A DNA stretch of 12,078 nt from a virus (lineage: Duplodnaviria; Heunggongvirae; Uroviricota; Caudoviricetes): IMG/VR virus record IMGVR_UViG_2703718672_000013. The stretch is one strand, 5' to 3'. Below the pieces are notes generated by a model, which saw only the letters and a program-made list of their open reading frames with translations, had not been told where the DNA came from and made no database searches. The position numbers were made by a program, and so were the translations under genes. This document shows, one piece after another, positions 1 to 11,994 of this stretch. How positions within the stretch are numbered: the stretch's first letter is position 1; every line of letters begins with the position of its first letter.

Positions 1-2405
1 GCATCGTGCAGGGCGTTATGGCGTTCACCTTCGAATGGAATAGTCGTTCTTGCGTCGAAATCCATCACCAGTCCCAGAGCAACCATCGTTCTTACATCGC
101 GATCATTGGTGTAACGCCACGGGCAGGGGATCCCCTGCCGTTCATATGAACGGCGTAAAATCACGTTGTCGAAAGTTGCACCGTTACCCCAGACCTGAAC
201 AAAAAATTCACCGGAGTTTTCGTCGATAAATTCCCGGAATTGCAGCAGTGCATCATCCAACGTGATTTCATCGGTCAGAATGGAGGATTGTGCTTCGCGT
301 GACTGTTTCAGCCACCACTTAATGGTGTCCCGATCGATGACCCCACCTGCGGTTTCCAGATCGATAGTTTTGCTGAATTCTGGCCCCATCTCTCCGGTTG
401 CCGGATCAAAAAACTTACCGGCTATAGAGTTTATTGGCGCATCAGGATTTTTTCCCATTGTTTCAAGGTCAATCATCAGATGGTGCCACAACCTGCTGGT
501 GGATGAGATTTCATGATGACCGTTCACTTTAATTAAGGGATTTGCTGTTTCGCCAGTTTTATTATCGCTGGCGTGATACTGATCGCTGCCAGTGTTCTCC
601 TTGTGCAGATGTTCAGTGCCTTCCATTTCCTCCGGATCATTTTTCTGAGCTTCAGCCTGATTCTCTTCATCGAATGTTTCCAGGTAGGTTGCGTTCCCCA
701 TCACCGCACCACAGTCAGGACAGTTGCCGCCACCGGTCTGACCGCATGCGGTGCAAACTTTTTCCAGTTCCTGTTGCACTGCTGGTTCTGGTTGTTGTTC
801 TTCTGGCCCGTTTTGTTGCGTATCCGGGCTGTTTTGTTCCGCTTCTGGCTCATTTTGTTTCACGTTGGGCTGATTCTGGTCCTCAGCGTCGCGACTCTGG
901 ATCCCTTTCACCCATTTCGGATCATTCGGGTCGCTAATCCCTTCAACAAATTCACCACGTGATGCAGCAAGCAATTTATCGGCGTCAGGCTGGCTGATAT
1001 TGGCTGCCTGCATAATTTTGTTTACTTCGTCAGCGGTAACTTTTACCGGCTCTGATTGTTCGGAATCTTCAGCGGTATCCACATTTTGCGGTAAGCCCGT
1101 GTATGTGCCATTTTTTCGGGCAAAATATTCTTCTTTTGAGATTTCGGTACCGCCGGCAGCCAGCGCCTTGTCCAGACCAGAAAGTTTGTTTGCCCTGCCG
1201 TATTTTTCCCCGCCCTTATCGGTAAAGACGAAATAAAATGGTCCTTCACGCTCTACAGATGGTTCAGCTTCCACCAGGATTTCATTTTTTTGAGTATCGG
1301 ATTCTGCCGTCTCCACTGGAGCAGTTTGTGCTGCTGACGGCTGGAGAGCATCAGTAGAGCTCTGGTCTGTTTCTTCATGTTCAAACACGCCCTTTGTCGT
1401 CAGGTATTCACTGATATATTTGTTCAGTGCAACGGGATCTTTGTGAATATCGATCGGACGTTCGCGAACAAGGCCAAAAATAGTCTGACGGTCATAGCCA
1501 AGTGCTTCGGGCTGTTTGCGCATTGATGCTGAGATACGCTTCCAGTCTTCGCGATCCTTGTCGATAACCTCATTTGTCGCCCAGCGATGGATGGTACCGT
1601 CAATGTTTCCTGCATCCACATCACCGGGCCAGAGGGCGCAGGCCAGTTCATTGTCGAGTGTTTTCCATGTCTGTTTGTATTCGCGGCGAATGGCAACAGT
1701 GACAGCCCCGGTTTTTTCAGCAGCGTTTTCAGTGTTCTGTTGGTTGACTCTGGCGCGGGTGAGATCAACAACAGACGTGTATTTTCCGGTTTCCTTGCGT
1801 TCACCTTCGCGACGTTTTTTCCAGATGCGCATCTCTGCCTGAATTTCAGGCCATTTAGCGCCAGGCTCACATTTATGCTTAACCCACCCGATGGCATGCA
1901 GTTTAAGTTCAGGATACATGGCGTTAACTTCTGGCATTTTCATCAACGCTTCAACGATATGTCCGCCGAATGTTGCCATGTCTTCCTGTAGTAATTCCTG
2001 TGCGCTAATCACCATATCAACGGTGATGTTTTCGCATGTGTCGAATTTAACCAGGACTGCGTTCTGTACTTCAGGGGACAGCTTGTCAAAATTGACGTTC
2101 ATCGGATCGGATTCTGGTTCGACCGGTACAAAGGAAGCTGACTCCTCATCCCAGCGGTTTTCCTGCATATATTCGGTATCCCAGGAATCGAGGGCAGGGC
2201 GGGGTATGCCGGGTTTATCCTCGCAGACAATAAATTTATAAGCGCAGTCCTGAGCTGCCGGGAATTGCTCCAGAAATTGCCAGTGAAATTTTGCGCGTGC
2301 GCGACGCTCATCACCGGCTTCAATGGCAGTGGCCACCGCAACAGCGCTATCTTCTTTTATGGCCTGTTCGTCAGGAATAGCAGCGCAAATAAAGATTTTA
2401 CTCAT
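1..2405 (-). CDS. RecE-like exonuclease, partial (C-terminus beyond window start); RecE-like N-terminal/middle region with C-x2-C...C-x2-C zinc ribbon, followed by a DnaQ-like DEDDh 3'-5' exonuclease domain
   Basis: Own reverse-strand translation from ATG at 2405 (MSKIFICAAIPDEQ...) is open to position 1; the six-frame track omits it because there is no in-window stop. Contains KVCTACGQTGGGNCPDCGAVMG, which I recall from E. coli RecE, then MIDLETMG (Exo I D-x-E), FDNVIL (Exo II) and HNALHDA (Exo III H-x4-D). GAGG Shine-Dalgarno about 10 nt upstream. Confidence 0.72.
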   Translation of the reverse strand, partial: MSKIFICAAIPDEQAIKEDSAVAVATAIEAGDERRARAKFHWQFLEQFPAAQDCAYKFIVCEDKPGIPRPALDSWDTEYMQENRWDEESASFVPVEPESDPMNVNFDKLSPEVQNAVLVKFDTCENITVDMVISAQELLQEDMATFGGHIVEALMKMPEVNAMYPELKLHAIGWVKHKCEPGAKWPEIQAEMRIWKKRREGERKETGKYTSVVDLTRARVNQQNTENAAEKTGAVTVAIRREYKQTWKTLDNELACALWPGDVDAGNIDGTIHRWATNEVIDKDREDWKRISASMRKQPEALGYDRQTIFGLVRERPIDIHKDPVALNKYISEYLTTKGVFEHEETDQSSTDALQPSAAQTAPVETAESDTQKNEILVEAEPSVEREGPFYFVFTDKGGEKYGRANKLSGLDKALAAGGTEISKEEYFARKNGTYTGLPQNVDTAEDSEQSEPVKVTADEVNKIMQAANISQPDADKLLAASRGEFVEGISDPNDPKWVKGIQSRDAEDQNQPNVKQNEPEAEQNSPDTQQNGPEEQQPEPAVQQELEKVCTACGQTGGGNCPDCGAVMGNATYLETFDEENQAEAQKNDPEEMEGTEHLHKENTGSDQYHASDNKTGETANPLIKVNGHHEISSTSRLWHHLMIDLETMGKNPDAPINSIAGKFFDPATGEMGPEFSKTIDLETAGGVIDRDTIKWWLKQSREAQSSILTDEITLDDALLQFREFIDENSGEFFVQVWGNGATFDNVILRRSYERQGIPCPWRYTNDRDVRTMVALGLVMDFDARTTIPFEGERHNALHD

Positions 2406-2498
2406 TGTGTTTTAACCTCATTACAGATTTAAGGGTGAACAAATCCCTGCCATTGCTGGCATATAAAAATGAAACCGGATATTAATTACGGTGCTGTT

Positions 2499-2690
2499 TT
2501 AAAGTCCTGCCGGTATTTCGTTATTATTAGTGTGAGTAGTTTTATCTACCGGATAACAGTTACCGGGAATTTTTTGTTCTGCTGCTGCAGCCATGCATTC
2601 TTTCATTGAACCGTATAAGCCAGTCACCAGCTCAAGAGATTCGCCGGAAACAAGATAAACTGTCAGAACGAGTGCAAATGTTGTATTCAT
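2499..2690 (-). CDS. YdfD-like small protein (63 aa) with hydrophobic N-terminal segment; Qin-prophage YdfD family, reported lysis-inducing
   Basis: ATG at 2690 overlaps the upstream TGA (ATGA coupling); AAGGA Shine-Dalgarno; N-terminus MNTTFALVLTVYLVSGESL is signal/TM-like; sits directly after the DicB-like gene as ydfD does in Qin. Confidence 0.6.
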   Translation of the reverse strand: MNTTFALVLTVYLVSGESLELVTGLYGSMKECMAAAAEQKIPGNCYPVDKTTHTNNNEIPAGL

Positions 2691-2875
2691 TGTTTATATC
2701 CTTTTTGCAGCAGGTCCAGACGAGCCAGCATTGAAGGAATGCATACTTCATTTAACAGGTCCTGCTCGAGTTTTCTCTGCTTAATGGCGTCTTCAATAAA
2801 TGTTTTGTCTCCAGTGATAACGCCAATTTCGAAACGAAGTTCAGACGTGCTGGCATTACATGATAACTTTTCCAT
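2687..2875 (-). CDS. dicB: DicB-like cell division inhibitor (62 aa)
   Basis: Internal ATG at 2875 with GAGGA 7 nt upstream (the track ORF begins at an upstream TTG). Product MEKLSCNASTSELRFEIGVITGDKTFIEDAIKQRKLEQDLLNEVCIPSMLARLDLLQKGYKQ matches remembered E. coli DicB (62 aa; EIGV, EDAI-KRK, SMLARL motifs). About 180 nt downstream of the DicF-like element. Confidence 0.75.
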   Translation of the reverse strand: MEKLSCNASTSELRFEIGVITGDKTFIEDAIKQRKLEQDLLNEVCIPSMLARLDLLQKGYKQ

Positions 2876-3054
2876 TATCGCGTCCTCAACAATGAATTTT
2901 GTGATGCGGTGCCTGGTGCCTCCAGGTGACGTTAACCAGTTAACAATTAACGCCGGATACAGAGCATTCTCGTTACTCAGCAAATGACCGCTTTACCGAT
3001 TTAACTGTTCCGCGTGCGCTGAGCCGCATTCACCGCATCACAAAATTCACTTTT

Positions 3055-3113
3055 AAAAAAGGGCGGCAGAGCAGTTACGGAGTAAAACTGATACCGCCAA
3101 ATGTCACCAGAAT
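3055..3113 (-). ncRNA. dicF: DicF-like small RNA (ftsZ-targeting sRNA family of Qin/Rac-type prophages)
   Basis: Minus-strand sequence ATTCTGGTGACATTTGGCGGTATCAGTTTTACTCCGTAACTGCTCTGCCGCCCTTTTTT is near-identical to my recollection of E. coli DicF, ending in a U-run; located immediately upstream of the DicB-like gene in the same orientation. Confidence 0.7.
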
Positions 3114-3448
3114 ATTGATAACAGAGGGCGTTGCAGCGGGGTTGTCACTTAAGCGTATGGTCAACCTGACAACCCGGTGTCCTCAACGGGGAAAGAATAA
3201 CCCCGCCATACTTACCGCCGCGCCATTTCGCGGATTGCCACAACCGGAAGCGCACGGTCGAATTAAATTTAACGACGGCTCTAAGGGAGAAGGACTTCGC
3301 CGTGCACTTTCGTGTTATGCCCTGACTTTTCAGGGATATATCCTTTCAGTAAACTGTCAGTGCCGGATTCTTATCTGTGTCCGGCGCACGACCACACGTA
3401 GCAGCGTGTTGGTCTCCATTTTTAATTCAGCCCTTAATGGAGGATAAA

Positions 3449-4784: not shown

Positions 4785-5072
4785 TCAGATAGAGAAGGGA
4801 AATTGTCGCCGAGAATGTGTCACGCTTACAATCTCAATGCTTGAAGCAGCTACTCTGTACAGGATTATGTAGTTAGGGTGGGTCACGATCTCTCTCAATC
4901 CAGAAACCCGTTCGCTTGGTGGATATAAGTACGGATGCTCAGATAGAGGTAATACCGATGTTTCAATGCGTATTTTTAGTCTACGTGCTGCCGGTGGGTT
5001 CTCCTTGGCGATGTAAGTTATGATCTGGCGCAAATCATCGCGAGCAGACGGTAGCCATAAAATGGGTAACAT
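4785..5072 (-). CDS. parE: ParE/RelE-superfamily type II toxin (95 aa)
   Basis: ParE-like pattern W..SA..DL..I..YIA..NP.AA......E....L...P..G........LRE......YI.LYRV....IEIV.V.H.RR; start overlaps the upstream stop (TAATG). Confidence 0.78.
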   Translation of the reverse strand: MLPILWLPSARDDLRQIITYIAKENPPAARRLKIRIETSVLPLSEHPYLYPPSERVSGLREIVTHPNYIILYRVAASSIEIVSVTHSRRQFPFSI

Positions 5073-7005: not shown

Positions 7006-7222
7006 TCAATATGTCGAGACGAAGGTATGTTTCGGCGCGCAGCCAGGCTCTGTAATCCGGGAGCATTTCGGGGCTGTTACACCAGCGGTTTGTTGCTGCA
7101 ACATTTAATACATGAGCCTGATAAAGGCTTTTCAAAAAATACATGTCGAACCTCCTCTGGTTCTGTCGATTGGGAACCACAGATTATATCCGGAGGAAGG
7201 TTCGGCACCAGATGAGGTAGCC

Positions 7223-8314
7223 ATGCGTGATTACGCAAAAGTTTCTCCGCGATTCTGGCTGGGAGAAACGGGGAGAGAACTTAGAAAGGCGGGTGCAGAA
7301 GCGCAAGTTGTTGCTTTTTACCTGATGACATCCCCTCACGCAAATATGCTGGGTTTGTATTACCTGCCAGTTTTATACCTTGCTCATGAAACCGGGCTTG
7401 GTCTGGAAGGGGCTTCAAAGGGGCTTAAAAGGGCTGTTGAAGCTGGTTTTTGTAGCTATGACCATGATGCAGAGATGGTCTGGGTCCATGAAATGGCAGC
7501 CTGGCAGGTTGGGGAAACGTTGAAGCCTGGCGATAACCGTTGTGCAGGTGTCAGGAATGAGTATGCATCATTACCTGAAAACGCTTTTCTGTCAGTGTTT
7601 TACGACAGATATAAAACGGATTTCCATCTGGATGTGAGGCGGAATAATAGCCGAAATTCGGTAAGGGGCTTCGAAGGGGCTTTTAAGGGGCTTCGAAGCC
7701 AAGAACAGGAACAGGAGCAGGAGAAAGAACAGGAACAGGACAAAAACACTATGGTTCATGGCAAAAAAAACACCACGAACCAGGCAGGGGATGTTCAGAC
7801 CGTCAATCCTGGTCAGCCAGCAGGCACGACACCGGAAGCCGATTCGGGCGCTGTGCAGCAGGTGATGACCGCAGGGTCGGAGCAATCACACCAACTGCAG
7901 CAGCCTGAAGCCGATTCCGCCATTCAGCGGGAAGCCGATCGGGTAGTCCCGGAAAGCACCGGGCAGTCTGTGGGACGAGTGGATTATCCGGATGTGTTCG
8001 AACAGGTCTGGCGGGAATACCCGTTGCGTGCTGGGGCAAACCCGAAGAAATCCGCTTTCAGTGCCTGGAAGGCCAGATTGCGCGAGGGGGTGCCACCAGA
8101 GACCATGCTGGATGGTGTGAGGCGTTACGCGAGATACCTGGCGGCGACCGGGAAAGCGGGAACGGAATTTGTTCAGCGAGCGACGACGTTTTTTGGGCCG
8201 GACCGGAATTTTGAAAACCCCTGGTTGCTCCCGGTAAGCGGCACGAACAACCAGCGTTGTGTGAATCATATTTCTGAACCGGATACCGAAATTCCGCCGG
8301 GATTCAGGGGGTGA
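7223..8314 (+). CDS. Phage replication initiation protein (O-like/primosomal; conserved phage C-terminal domain) with an internal EQ-repeat linker
   Basis: ATG at 7223 with GAGG at 7213-7216 (track ORF starts 37 codons upstream); C-terminal region DYPDVFEQVWREYPLRAGANPKKSAFSAWKARLREG recalled from phage replication proteins; immediately followed by a DnaC-like gene. Confidence 0.72.
   Translation: MRDYAKVSPRFWLGETGRELRKAGAEAQVVAFYLMTSPHANMLGLYYLPVLYLAHETGLGLEGASKGLKRAVEAGFCSYDHDAEMVWVHEMAAWQVGETLKPGDNRCAGVRNEYASLPENAFLSVFYDRYKTDFHLDVRRNNSRNSVRGFEGAFKGLRSQEQEQEQEKEQEQDKNTMVHGKKNTTNQAGDVQTVNPGQPAGTTPEADSGAVQQVMTAGSEQSHQLQQPEADSAIQREADRVVPESTGQSVGRVDYPDVFEQVWREYPLRAGANPKKSAFSAWKARLREGVPPETMLDGVRRYARYLAATGKAGTEFVQRATTFFGPDRNFENPWLLPVSGTNNQRCVNHISEPDTEIPPGFRG
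7407..7436. repeat. Iteron-like cluster 1: AAGGGGCTT at 7407 and 7418 plus degenerate AAGGGCTG at 7429, all 11-bp phased
   Basis: Read directly in the sequence; lies within the replication initiator ORF. Confidence 0.55.
7663..7700. repeat. Iteron-like cluster 2 (candidate ori core): AAGGGGCTT x3 at 7663, 7674 and 7685, 11-bp phased; includes the perfect palindrome GGCTTCGAAGCC
   Basis: Read directly in the sequence; followed by a hexamer tract and an A-rich stretch, inside the initiator ORF as in the lambda O/ori arrangement. Confidence 0.55.
7703..7744. repeat. Tandem hexanucleotide tract (GAACAG/GAGCAG/GAGAAA)x7 encoding the EQEQEQEKEQEQD linker
   Basis: Read directly in the sequence; possible length-variable microsatellite. 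Confidence 0.6.
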
Positions 8315-9583: not shown

Positions 9584-9653
9584 NNNNNNNNNNNNNNNNN
9601 NNNNNNNNNNNNNNNNNNNNNNNNNNNNNNNNNNNNNNNNNNNNNNNNNNNNN
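9584..9653. other. Assembly gap (70 N)
   Basis: Run of n characters. Confidence 0.99.
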
Positions 9654-9695: not shown

Positions 9696-10109
9696 ATGGC
9701 AAAAGTATTTACACAGGAAGAGCGGGAAAAAATTAAAGGGCAGGTTGTTGAGCTAGTACGCCGGAGTGGGCGCGAGACGTTACGGCAACTGGAAGCCAAG
9801 ACAGGTGCGACAAGATATCTGATGAGCGTTCTTGCCAGAGAGCTGGTTGCCAGTGGCGATGTATACAACTCTGGTTACGGGTTATTCCCATCTGAACAGG
9901 CTCGTAAGGACTGGCAAAACGCCCGCAAAAAACTATCGAGGGCAAAACTGAAGAAACCGGTTGTGGTTGATCCTGACCTTATCTGGTCATTACCAGACGG
10001 AGAAATACGCCGCTATGACAGGCAATTGAACATAATTTGTAGTGAGTGCCGTAACAGTGAAGTGATGCAGCGAGTTTTGATATTTTACACAGGAGTAATG
10101 ATGGAATAG
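9696..10109 (+). CDS. Hypothetical protein (137 aa)
   Basis: ATG at 9696 with GGAGG 5 nt upstream; protein-like composition; possibly a fragment of a longer ORF continuing from before the gap. Confidence 0.45.
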   Translation: MAKVFTQEEREKIKGQVVELVRRSGRETLRQLEAKTGATRYLMSVLARELVASGDVYNSGYGLFPSEQARKDWQNARKKLSRAKLKKPVVVDPDLIWSLPDGEIRRYDRQLNIICSECRNSEVMQRVLIFYTGVMME

Positions 10110-10460
10110 TGAAAATAACATGAAACCTTTGGATTCTGGTGTTTCAGTGGATGGGAAAAGAGCAGATACATAGAAAATGAATAGCAATAATTCACAGTCT
10201 GGATGTTGTTTGTATGCTTATAAAATGATCCTAGTATGCATTGCCGGAGTTGAATCAGCTCCAATGAAGAAACTGAGAGGAGTATTTAGAAGATAGCTAA
10301 ATGGATGTAATTATTAGTATCTAAAAAATAGTATTTTTGAAATGGGTCTAAGAACACAACAATGTACAAATGAGAAGTTATCTTTTAATATGTTCAAAGA
10401 CCCATTAGGATTGATATCAGTTATGTTAGCTAGATTGATAAAGTGATTACATATTTTCTG

Positions 10461-11234
10461 TTATATGCTGAAATGAATAATGCTATTCCAGAGTGCAGCA
10501 GAGAAAGTCTCCTGATGATTGAGCTCTGGAAATTGTACAATAGAAAAATTACTGTATTTTTCTGTCAAAATATTTCTCAAAACAGATTCCGCTTTGATGG
10601 CTTCAGGATATAAAGATGCGGAGTAATCAAGGCTAAGATTTCCGTTAAGCAAGCATATACTTTTAGTGTGCTTTGATTCTGATATATCATCTTTAATTAT
10701 CTTGATGATTCTTTCATTCTGCCATAGAAGTGATGGTGCAGATATATAATAATAGTTAAAGCATGAATTATTTTTTAAGCAATCAAGCACAAAAATAGCA
10801 CCTAGCGAGTGCCCCCATATACCGATTCTGGAACTGTTCGGAGCAATAGTACTAACCCATGGCATGATCTGAGTTAGTAATAATTCTCGGAAAGACTGGC
10901 TTCCTCCACCAGTAAAGTAGATCCATGCTGGTTTAGAGTTATCAACAATAGCATTTTCACCATCAGGAGTATAATCGTAAGCACGGCGATGAATGCTAAG
11001 GTTATTCCAAGATTCATAACCAAGTGTAACTAACACTGGTGGATTGGGTAGTGCATCAATAACAGGCAGAATATCAGAAATGTAATTGTTGGCACTATTC
11101 CCATCAAGTATATAAAGAGTTGCATTATTTTTTTTAATGTTTTTTGGAGTAAAAATACATATTTTATATTTGGTGTCATGGTTAATTGAGTTAAATATGC
11201 GTGTTTGACAATGAATGTCCATATGTTTAGTCAT
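10461..11234 (-). CDS. Alpha/beta-hydrolase, putative esterase (esterase-D/IroE/Fes-like fold) in an AT-rich island
   Basis: 257-aa ORF; nucleophile elbow G-H-S-L-G (GIWGHSLGAIFVLD), upstream LYILDGNS and GGGS motifs, C-terminal His (LNHQETF); GGGGAG Shine-Dalgarno; N/I/K/S-rich composition consistent with foreign origin. Confidence 0.7.
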   Translation of the reverse strand: MTKHMDIHCQTRIFNSINHDTKYKICIFTPKNIKKNNATLYILDGNSANNYISDILPVIDALPNPPVLVTLGYESWNNLSIHRRAYDYTPDGENAIVDNSKPAWIYFTGGGSQSFRELLLTQIMPWVSTIAPNSSRIGIWGHSLGAIFVLDCLKNNSCFNYYYISAPSLLWQNERIIKIIKDDISESKHTKSICLLNGNLSLDYSASLYPEAIKAESVLRNILTEKYSNFSIVQFPELNHQETFSAALWNSIIHFSI

Positions 11235-11781
11235 GCGTTCTCCCCATGAGCATTAAAGGATGCTTAAGATATGCTATGTCACTGATAAAAAATTTGTTGT
11301 GTGTGTTTAGTTATTTTATCTACCTCCATTATGATTTAAGACTGATATATGTTATCAGCAAAGGTACATCGTTATTATTTTACCTGTCAATACATTTGAT
11401 ATTGATTATCGTTTACATCGCTTGCTTAGGAAATTGAAGGCAGGTAACTATCATGTCAATGAACTAACCCACAGTCTAACGTACTTCTTTCCCCAATCAC
11501 CAACAACCAAATTCCTGTTATCACCACTGGGATTTTGGCGCAACTTCATGGTGCAGAGGTAAATAGCATCAAGCAAAATCTCTTTTTCCGTTGTTGTCCT
11601 TATGGGACGTCTGTCTTTCTGACCGATTTCATATTGGCGAGGTAATGGGAAGTTAAGTAGAATAGCTGCGGGTGCTTGAGGCTATCTGCCTCGGGCATGA
11701 ACACCAACGGCAGATAGAGAAAAGCCCCAGTTAACATTACGCGTCCTGCAAGACGCCTAACATTAATCTGAGGCTCAATCT

Positions 11782-11994
11782 ATGAACGGCAAATCTAGGT
11801 TAGCCTCTTACGTGCCGAAAGGCAAGGAGAAGCAGGCTATGAAGCAGCAAAAGGCGATGTTAATCGCCCTGATCGTCATCTGTTTAACCGTCATAGTGAC
11901 GGCACTGGTAACGAGGAAAGACCTCTGCGAGGTACGAGTCCGAACCGGCCAGACGGAGGTCGCTGTCTTCACAGCTTACGAACCTGAGGAGTAA
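11782..11994 (+). CDS. mok-like overlapping reading frame of a hok/sok-type type I toxin locus
   Basis: 70-aa ORF that contains the hok-like frame, the arrangement of mok/hok; GAGG upstream of ATG 11782. Confidence 0.5.
   Translation: MNGKSRLASYVPKGKEKQAMKQQKAMLIALIVICLTVIVTALVTRKDLCEVRVRTGQTEVAVFTAYEPEE
11839..11994 (+). CDS. hok: Hok/Gef-family type I toxin (51 aa membrane peptide)
   Basis: MKQQKAMLIALIVICLTVIVTALVTRKDLCEVRVRTGQTEVAVFTAYEPEE matches the Hok family signature (LTRKSLCEIR...EVAAF.AYE) as I recall it; a 9-bp hairpin lies in the leader (11682-11717). Confidence 0.78.
   Translation: MKQQKAMLIALIVICLTVIVTALVTRKDLCEVRVRTGQTEVAVFTAYEPEE

Follow-up and report, generated by a model that had tools for sequence, protein, structure and literature searches.

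In a 12,078-nt window of viral DNA (IMG/VR record IMGVR_UViG_2703718672_000013, Caudoviricetes), an AT-rich block between the genes for DUF977 and HokD carries one long open reading frame (ORF), ECs1077. The block is a foreign, self-contained cassette in a variable slot of a lambdoid prophage. Its product is, we are confident, a deep-branching member of the IroE/PfeE/BesA family of siderophore esterases. On balance, we favor the reading that the cassette is a lysogenic-conversion moron. It would be expressed in the lysogen, possibly under control of iron through Fur, and would benefit the host by supplying a cytoplasmic esterase for catecholate siderophores. The coordinates of the features are given in Table 1.

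The gene is annotated as 'hypothetical protein' in Sakai and its product as 'alpha/beta hydrolase' in RefSeq. The first-pass annotation of this DNA, made from the sequence alone, had recognized an alpha/beta-hydrolase of the esterase-D/IroE/Fes superfamily, and searches now place the protein closer within that group. It carries the motif W-G-H-S-L-G-A at residues 140-146, with G-H-S-L-G at 141-145. When it was compared with the sequences in PDB by phmmer, the top match was IroE (2GZR; E=5e-26, 95 bits), aligned over residues 8-253 and thus over the full length. BES/BesA (9e-13, 51.6 bits), PfeE (1.5e-11) and fungal siderophore esterases followed. A profile search collected 1342 proteins of the IroE family from Enterobacterales, Pseudomonas and others, with 26-31% identity to ECs1077.

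The predicted structure gave the same assignment. An AlphaFold2 model built from a 36-sequence alignment had a predicted local distance difference test score of 87.4 and a predicted template modelling (TM) score of 0.89. Structure prediction had been proposed as a check on the hydrolase assignment, and the fold of the model was closest to solved siderophore esterases. In a Foldseek search against PDB, ranks 1-30 were siderophore esterases throughout (IroE, PfeE, EstA/EstB, BesA and IroE-like proteins; TM 0.71-0.81). Lower ranks, with query TM of 0.5-0.7 and far less coverage or identity, went to Fes, esterase D, S-formylglutathione hydrolases and lipases. Esterase D, S-formylglutathione hydrolase and generic lipase were rejected as assignments because of their weaker structural matches (TM 0.50-0.60, 11-14% identity). 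Matches in the BFVD library of viral structures were confined to generic alpha/beta hydrolases, with a TM no higher than 0.58; none was an IroE-like protein.

All 17 invariant columns of the 36-sequence family alignment were kept in ECs1077, including those in the R-A-Y-D-Y-T-P and L-D-G-N motifs. Residues D90, R130, S189 and H287 of IroE corresponded to D44, R84, S143 and H240. Arg130 reportedly has a role in IroE that was described by Larsen et al. in 2006. Ser189 and His287 form the catalytic dyad of IroE (PMC10515146). The protein belongs to the siderophore-esterase family, although it is not an orthologue of IroE. The earlier statement that no role can be assigned from the sequence was too pessimistic, as hydrolysis of siderophore esters is clearly favored over defence or a generic esterase function.

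ECs1077 differed from its relatives at the N-terminus. In 32 of 33 homologues from outside the prophages, a hydrophobic signal or anchor is followed by a conserved segment, PDMxPLGPNIADKGS. ECs1077 begins just past the position of this segment and has no hydrophobic stretch. The maximum Kyte-Doolittle hydrophobicity (12 residues, within the first 60) was 0.58-0.76 here and 1.6-2.9 (no lower than 1.58) in 32 of the 33 homologues. The Shine-Dalgarno segment was identical in 11 distinct cassette sequences, save for a single C/T difference directly ahead of the start codon. All alleles share a TAA in frame, 21 nt upstream of the ATG, and this excluded an N-terminal extension or a lost signal peptide. 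Leaderless members of the family were also recovered from Bacillales, as short homologues. Because it has no signal peptide or membrane anchor, ECs1077 should stay in the cytoplasm and probably works inside the cell. Fes, too, acts in the cytoplasm (PMC8001512).

The gene has been maintained by selection in this leaderless form. For the O157 allele and an allele with 91% DNA identity to it, the synonymous divergence (dS) was 0.31, the nonsynonymous divergence (dN) was 0.052 and dN/dS was 0.16. As both alleles are leaderless, selection acted on the leaderless form. The ORF was intact in 18 of the 19 copies found in IMG/VR, and 467 of the 471 copies in complete genomes spanned at least 80% of the gene. 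A few genomes had IS629/IS1203 insertions or frameshifts in it (including the loci L008, L028 and P0017). Judged from these comparisons, ECs1077 is intact and under purifying selection.

Among the 11 distinct cassettes, variable columns made up 13.8% of the 246 nt 5′ of the ATG, 19.5% of the third codon positions and 26.5% of the 3′ flank. Two candidate promoters and two Fur-box-like sites lie in the 5′ region (Table 1). Fur-box-like site 1 was the best site of the 12-kb window. When the upstream region was shuffled 2000 times, its 15 matches to the classical Fur box were reached in 8 shuffles (0.4%) and its 12/14 in 13 (0.65%). Site 2 lies within a perfect 6-bp inverted repeat, CTGATA-N5-TATCAG (11342-11358), which was invariant in all 11 distinct cassettes and overlaps the candidate -35. 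These were the only two sites in the window with at least 11/14 matches to the Fur 7-1-7 motif, and both are upstream of ECs1077. The genuine Fur boxes of fepA-fes, fepD-entS and fepB-entC in Sakai, scored alike, had 13-16/19 and 11-13/14, a range that takes in the scores of both sites. The two sites make Fur control of ECs1077 plausible. A LexA box was also considered, but the palindrome CTGATAACATATATCAG has CTG-N11-CAG spacing and not N10.

Downstream of the gene, the terminator-like hairpin folded as RNA at -27.5 kcal/mol (z -2.98); a U-rich tract comes after it when the minus strand is read, but not on the other strand. Variable columns made up 12% of the hairpin, compared with 26.5% of the 3′ flank as a whole. 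This 350-nt flank (10110-10460) had no convincing ORF and was poorly conserved except for the hairpin.

From these features, the following mechanism can be proposed. In the cytoplasm, Ser143, activated by His240, would attack catecholate trilactone siderophores at their serine-ester bonds. Likely substrates would be molecules of the enterobactin type, made by the host or pirated from neighboring bacteria. The host makes enterobactin and takes it up, and the ent/fep/fes cluster is intact in Sakai, so that an enterobactin-type substrate is available in the host. The outcome could be a second, Fes-like route to iron release or siderophore recycling, or a wider range of usable xenosiderophores. 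Transcription would run leftward from the gene's own promoter, against the early-right operon, so that expression would be possible while the prophage is repressed. Repression by iron is suggested by the two Fur-box-like sites.

A more far-reaching version of this proposal is possible, though we hold it only tentatively and would not expect all of it to be true. ECs1077 would then be the first phage-borne siderophore esterase, Fur-controlled and cytoplasmic, spread by lambdoid prophages among enterohemorrhagic E. coli (EHEC) and E. coli strains that produce Shiga toxin (STEC). It would either let the lysogen free the iron bound to catecholate siderophores, be they enterobactin-type or pirated, or degrade the siderophore pool of the host. 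The latter would reset iron homeostasis and the TonB-dependent receptors that phages and colicins use. We know of no described phage-borne siderophore esterase.

Several results weigh against a role in siderophore hydrolysis in the lysogen. The match to Pfam PF00756 was confined to residues 81-161 and reached 17 bits (E=0.005) against a cut-off of 22. The search for this family (Esterase), suggested earlier as a check, gave a match below threshold and would have been equivocal alone; homologues about 30% identical to ECs1077 do carry PF00756. NCBIfam gave no match. In PHROGs, the protein matched phrog_8493, of 'unknown function'. No paper mentioning ECs1077, NP_309104, WP_000160654, phrog_8493 or the neighboring ECs numbers was found in the literature, and the papers listed for IroE, prophages and O157 had nothing on ECs1077 by title or abstract. 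The regulatory signals are also open to doubt. A sigma-70 consensus scan found 9 promoter-like sites in the region, not above the 7.5 expected by chance. Fur-box-like site 1 was only partly conserved (14/19 in the 91% alleles, by our own count on the alignment), the score of site 2 alone was reached by about 8% of shuffles, and AT-rich DNA inflates Fur-like matches. DNA as AT-rich as this cassette is typically silenced by H-NS, so the gene may be barely expressed.

Other results on this side concern the substrate. Identity of ECs1077 to any relative outside the E. coli prophages, characterized or not, was 25-33%. It was 25-31% to members of the IroE clade, which are 35-65% identical to one another. 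A neighbor-joining tree put ECs1077 on a long branch that fell outside both IroE and the PfeE-like sequences. Because of this low identity and this branching, the substrate specificity may have shifted. In an alignment read by eye, three near-invariant positions of the family were substituted (D18N, G146A and G241Q). No gene for siderophore transport or biosynthesis adjoined ECs1077; at 24 of 24 loci, the neighbors were genes of the phage replication region and hok/sok. Moreover, the host already has Fes, and the benefit of ECs1077 is therefore unclear.

All of these points on the substrate would fit an active esterase that acts on an ester, lactone or depsipeptide other than a siderophore, in a divergent prophage clade that was re-tooled. 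Its substrate might be a host-derived or dietary ester, an antibiotic or toxin of a competitor, or an O-acyl group of the cell envelope. There is a parallel in the same prophage, Sp4, which carries another esterase as cargo, ECs1088 of the SASA family. Against a non-siderophore substrate stand the 30 closest solved structures, every one a siderophore esterase, as well as the retained invariant residues with their two motifs. The Fur-box-like sites, too, fit an iron-related gene. We regard this alternative as unlikely, although it is the likeliest of the three considered here.

A second alternative is loss of function. ECs1077 would then be a silent relic, a 5′-truncated IroE-like gene that lost its export signal at capture, is silenced by H-NS, contributes nothing and persists only because it hitch-hikes with the prophage. 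The leader and the PDMxPLGPNIADKGS segment of its relatives are indeed missing, the DNA is very AT-rich, and occasional insertion sequence (IS) or frameshift disruptions occur. The remnant of an antirepressor gene (see below) shows that illegitimate rearrangement has taken place in the slot. However, a relic would not be expected to show a dN/dS of 0.16 among alleles that are all leaderless, or an ORF that has stayed whole in nearly all of the 471 genomes and at 18 of the 19 loci in IMG/VR. The Shine-Dalgarno sequence, the 5′ region and the terminator hairpin were better conserved than synonymous sites, and the AlphaFold2 model was confident without the N-terminal segment. We therefore consider a relic improbable.

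A function in anti-phage defence, counter-defence or superinfection exclusion, perhaps by way of siderophore levels and the expression of TonB-dependent receptors, is very improbable: counter-oriented AT-rich prophage cargo commonly has such functions, the slot is a variable hotspot with mostly unknown alternative cargo (including an AT-rich minus-strand gene, described below), and the neighbor ECs1076 is annotated as 'phage exclusion protein' in the Sakai record, but neither ECs1077 (at E<=1) nor the alternative cargo had a match in PADLOC-DB 2.0, the fold and residues point to a family of small-molecule esterases in which no member is known to act in defence, and the gene stands alone without a partner.

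The cassette is set off from its surroundings by composition. Windowed analysis bore out the earlier observation that the island is markedly AT-richer than its flanks: the G+C content (GC) of 400-nt windows was 0.31-0.37 over 10001-11600, 0.43-0.61 on the left side and 0.44-0.51 on the right side. For the block 10088-11591, GC was 0.342, compared with 0.479 and 0.530 for the flanks. This block was the lowest-GC 1.5-kb window of a 25.8-kb homologous prophage segment from strain TW14359 (L001; median 0.468, 5th percentile 0.392). The ECs1077 gene had a GC of 34.5% and a GC at third codon positions of 28%, whereas the latter was 42-67% in neighboring genes.

Alignment with related prophages that bear other cargo placed the left break in homology at about 10072-10087 and the right break at 11592-11650. 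The left break falls inside the final codons of the DUF977 gene, with the last seven or so codons beyond it. From these breaks and the position of sok in Rfam, the foreign block is about 1.5 kb long (10088-11591). The first-pass annotation had drawn the island from 10110 to 11780. Its AT-rich block stands, but about 190 nt on the right (11592-11780) lie outside the island and belong to the conserved leader of hok/sok, because homology resumes at 11592-11650 and sok is at 11670-11844. The minus-strand hydrolase with its GHSLG motif had been called the sole convincing gene of the island, opposite to the genes around it. It is indeed the only long ORF there, and both neighbors are on the plus strand.

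Table 1. Positions of the cassette, its gene, candidate signals and flanking features in the 12,078-nt window.
Feature	Position	Strand	Basis
DUF977 gene (ECs1076), conserved left flank	9696-10109	+	Pfam PF06163, 95.5 bits
Variable, AT-rich moron cassette between DUF977 and hokD in a lambdoid prophage of the Sp4/CP-933M type	10088-11591		GC and homology breaks
Terminator-like hairpin, 55 nt past the esterase stop codon	10341-10406	-	Inverted repeat I3, 16-nt arms, 88% complementary
ECs1077 (WP_000160654.1), 257 aa, leaderless serine esterase of the IroE/PfeE/BesA family	10461-11234	-	Only long ORF; phmmer, AlphaFold2, Foldseek, dN/dS
His240 codon, second member of the dyad (IroE His287)	10515-10517	-	Invariant column and mapping to IroE
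Ser143 codon, nucleophile of G-H-S-L-G (IroE Ser189)	10806-10808	-	Invariant column and mapping to IroE
Arg84 codon, R-A-Y-D-Y-T-P motif (IroE Arg130)	10983-10985	-	Invariant in 36 family sequences and mapping
Asp44 codon, L-D-G-N motif (IroE Asp90)	11103-11105	-	Invariant in 36 family sequences and mapping
Shine-Dalgarno GGGGAG, 5 nt ahead of the start codon (ATG at 11234)	11240-11245	-	Read from the sequence
Candidate sigma-70 promoter ATAACA-16-CATAAT	11328-11355	-	Consensus scan; hexamers invariant across alleles
Fur-box-like palindrome, site 2, TGATATATGTTATCA	11343-11357		11/14 vs TGATAATnATTATCA; overlaps the candidate -35; invariant in 11 distinct cassettes
Second candidate promoter TTGACA (11390-11385)-18-TACCTT (11366-11361)	11361-11390	-	Read by eye; hexamers invariant across alleles
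Fur-box-like site 1, GTAAACGATAATCAATATC	11398-11416	-	15/19 vs the classical Fur box; 12/14 as 7-1-7
5′ remnant (95 nt) of an ORF6N/Ant-type antirepressor gene	11486-11580	+	PGAP pseudogene 11496-11579; 76-83% DNA identity to 5′ ends of ORF6N/antirepressor genes
sok/hok leader, conserved right flank	11670-11844	+	Rfam RF01794, 105.6 bits, E=1e-23
hokD	11839-11994	+	Right neighbor gene

Many E. coli O157:H7 chromosomes matched the stretch 10000-11800 with 100% identity. The prophage that holds this region in TW14359 and Sakai is the lambdoid one adjoining yccA, which is Sp4; we take Sp4 to be equivalent to CP-933M. Its genes run in the order repressor/cro, YdaT, O-like and DnaC-like replication genes, DUF1627, DUF977, ECs1077, hokD, DUF968, rusA and Q.

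The slot between DUF977 and hokD holds different genes in related prophages. At least four other fillings were seen: QueH (L002), DUF7167 with several small hypothetical genes (L003), an AT-rich gene (L004) and a DUF551 gene (L005). The L004 filling (strain 23AR1183, 2079-2888, minus strand) is a single-gene cassette of GC 0.37 that encodes a 269-aa hypothetical protein, WP_000161640.1, for which neither Pfam nor PADLOC gave a match. This is an uncharacterized moron, built in the same way as the cassette of ECs1077. The epoxyqueuosine reductase gene queH lies at 2116-2781 (plus strand) of L002, and many E. coli prophages carry QueH in the slot. In strain C (H86), a methyltransferase gene stands beside it. 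QueH in the slot may be linked to phage queuosine or 7-deazaguanine metabolism.

The esterase gene was found in 471 of 5426 complete E. coli genomes, in 458 of them at >=99% identity and in 13 at 90-95%. A 2.4-kb query of the cassette with both flanks matched 4828 of the 5426 genomes, mostly through the hokD or DUF977 flank alone. This distribution and the other fillings of the slot agree with the earlier view of the gene as cargo and not core. Neither a lack of any alpha/beta-hydrolase match nor a core gene of similar composition in all related prophages was found. Carriers among the copies examined were O157:H7, other STEC serogroups (O145, O103 and O111) and a few other isolates. The gene was also present on 19 prophage contigs in IMG/VR. 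It had no match among 50,697 phage records (INPHARED phage genomes) and no close relative among GTDB species representatives. When 1.84 billion representatives were searched exhaustively with HMMER, the full-length and fragmentary copies of the E. coli prophage clade were 76-99% identical to the query over the matched stretches, and the next best sequences had no more than 33% identity.

At all 24 loci examined by annotation or BLAST, the esterase occupied this same slot, even as the replication modules varied; the DUF977 flank was 72-100% identical. There were three allele groups, of 100%, 93% and 91% DNA identity, all in the same slot. Because of this, the cassette has been circulating among lambdoid prophages for some time. 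Recent acquisition, which had been proposed for it, was not shown, given the three groups in one slot and a dS of 0.31 between the 100% and 91% groups.

The antirepressor remnant is flanked by the promoter region of the esterase on one side and the hok leader on the other. It accompanies the 100% and 93% alleles but not the 91% alleles and appears to be the scar of an earlier turnover of cargo in the slot. IS elements were seen at several loci. IS629/IS1203 splits the esterase gene in strain 12689 (L008 1496-3582), an IS481-family element lies between the cassette and hokD in 14EC047 (L007 5335-6408), and IS1203 lies inside the 1.8-kb region in H1 (strain 9234). L029 has about 1.1 kb more DNA (2295-3405) separating hokD from the sok leader, perhaps through an insertion of this kind.

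Elsewhere in the window, a run of 70 N at 9584-9653 interrupts the DUF1627 gene (ECs1075). The corresponding stretch of L002 (1225-1473) has 249 nt, so the run stands in for a stretch of another length, and the split of DUF1627 in the list of ORFs is artificial. The early-left region carries the antisense small RNA DicF at 3061-3112 (minus strand; Rfam RF00039, 76.9 bits, E=6e-16), and the annotation of the corresponding region in the homologous TW14359 segment includes dicB and small genes of the ydfB type. A gene for a 95-aa toxin of the RelE/ParE family at 4785-5072 (minus strand), with a 192-nt partner gene directly upstream (L001 6888-7079), lies between the early-left genes and the repressor and makes a type II toxin-antitoxin pair in the immunity region of the prophage. 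The O-like replication gene at 7112-8314 (plus strand) encodes 400 aa, compared with 365 aa in TW14359 (L001 9039-10136), and contains a low-complexity run, EQEQEQEKEQEQ. Because of this difference in length, the window is not identical to TW14359 outside the island.

Among known systems, IroE, the salmochelin/enterobactin trilactone hydrolase of iroBCDEN (2GZR/2GZS), was the best match of ECs1077 among solved structures in both sequence and structure. Both are single alpha/beta-hydrolase domains with no lid, and they share the Ser-His dyad, the equivalents of Asp90 and Arg130 and the invariant residues of the family. Unlike IroE, ECs1077 (about 28% identical and outside the IroE clade) has neither an N-terminal anchor or signal nor the PDMxPLGPNIADKGS segment. 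It is encoded in a prophage cargo slot at 34% GC and not in an iro cluster.

PfeE of P. aeruginosa and Cee of Campylobacter belong to the same family and have the same fold (Foldseek ranks 2-6, TM about 0.75). They are periplasmic, are encoded beside their TonB-dependent receptor and serve the piracy of siderophores made by other species (PMC8001512). By analogy, piracy is one plausible role for ECs1077, but ECs1077 is leaderless, has no transport partner and was only 21-23% identical to them in the structural alignment.

BesA, the bacillibactin esterase of Bacillus (2QM0, 'BES'), is another member of the family (phmmer 9e-13; Foldseek TM 0.75). It is leaderless and cytoplasmic. Unlike ECs1077, BesA is encoded on the chromosome as part of a siderophore regulon and is not carried by a phage, and it is farther in sequence than IroE (51.6 vs 95 bits). 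Fes and IroD, of the same broad esterase superfamily, have the compartment and the job proposed for ECs1077: their hydrolysis of the trilactone in the cytoplasm releases iron (PMC8001512, PMC8891985). In Fes, a lid domain is added at the N-terminus and the catalytic residues form a Ser-His-Glu triad (PMC10515146), whereas ECs1077, of 257 aa, is a single domain with no lid and matched Fes through the C-terminal half only (TMt 0.48, 17% identity). Of these enzymes, a cytoplasmic one, Fes or BesA, would be the closest functional analogue.

The cassette also resembles other morons of EHEC lambdoid prophages. An example is the SASA-family, NanS-p-type carbohydrate esterase gene ECs1088 in the same prophage, which is likewise an independent unit of deviant composition between conserved phage genes. 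Like these morons, the ECs1077 cassette is variable among related phages and, as far as can be judged from the sequence, would encode an enzyme for host fitness and not for a phage function. ECs1077 belongs to a different enzyme family from ECs1088 and would differ in substrate.

About 9% of complete E. coli genomes carry ECs1077, and many of these are from O157:H7 and other STEC strains. The mechanism proposed for it is in itself unsurprising; the notable twist is that the enzyme is phage-borne, leaderless and deep-branching. As a leaderless, deep-branching relative of IroE, it could show how compartment and substrate preference evolved in this family. If our reading is correct, Sp4/CP-933M would contribute to iron acquisition, a recognized determinant of fitness and virulence, beside its known cargo (PchA and a carbohydrate esterase). 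Lysogenic conversion would then extend to siderophore processing, and iron acquisition would be a trait that prophages convert.

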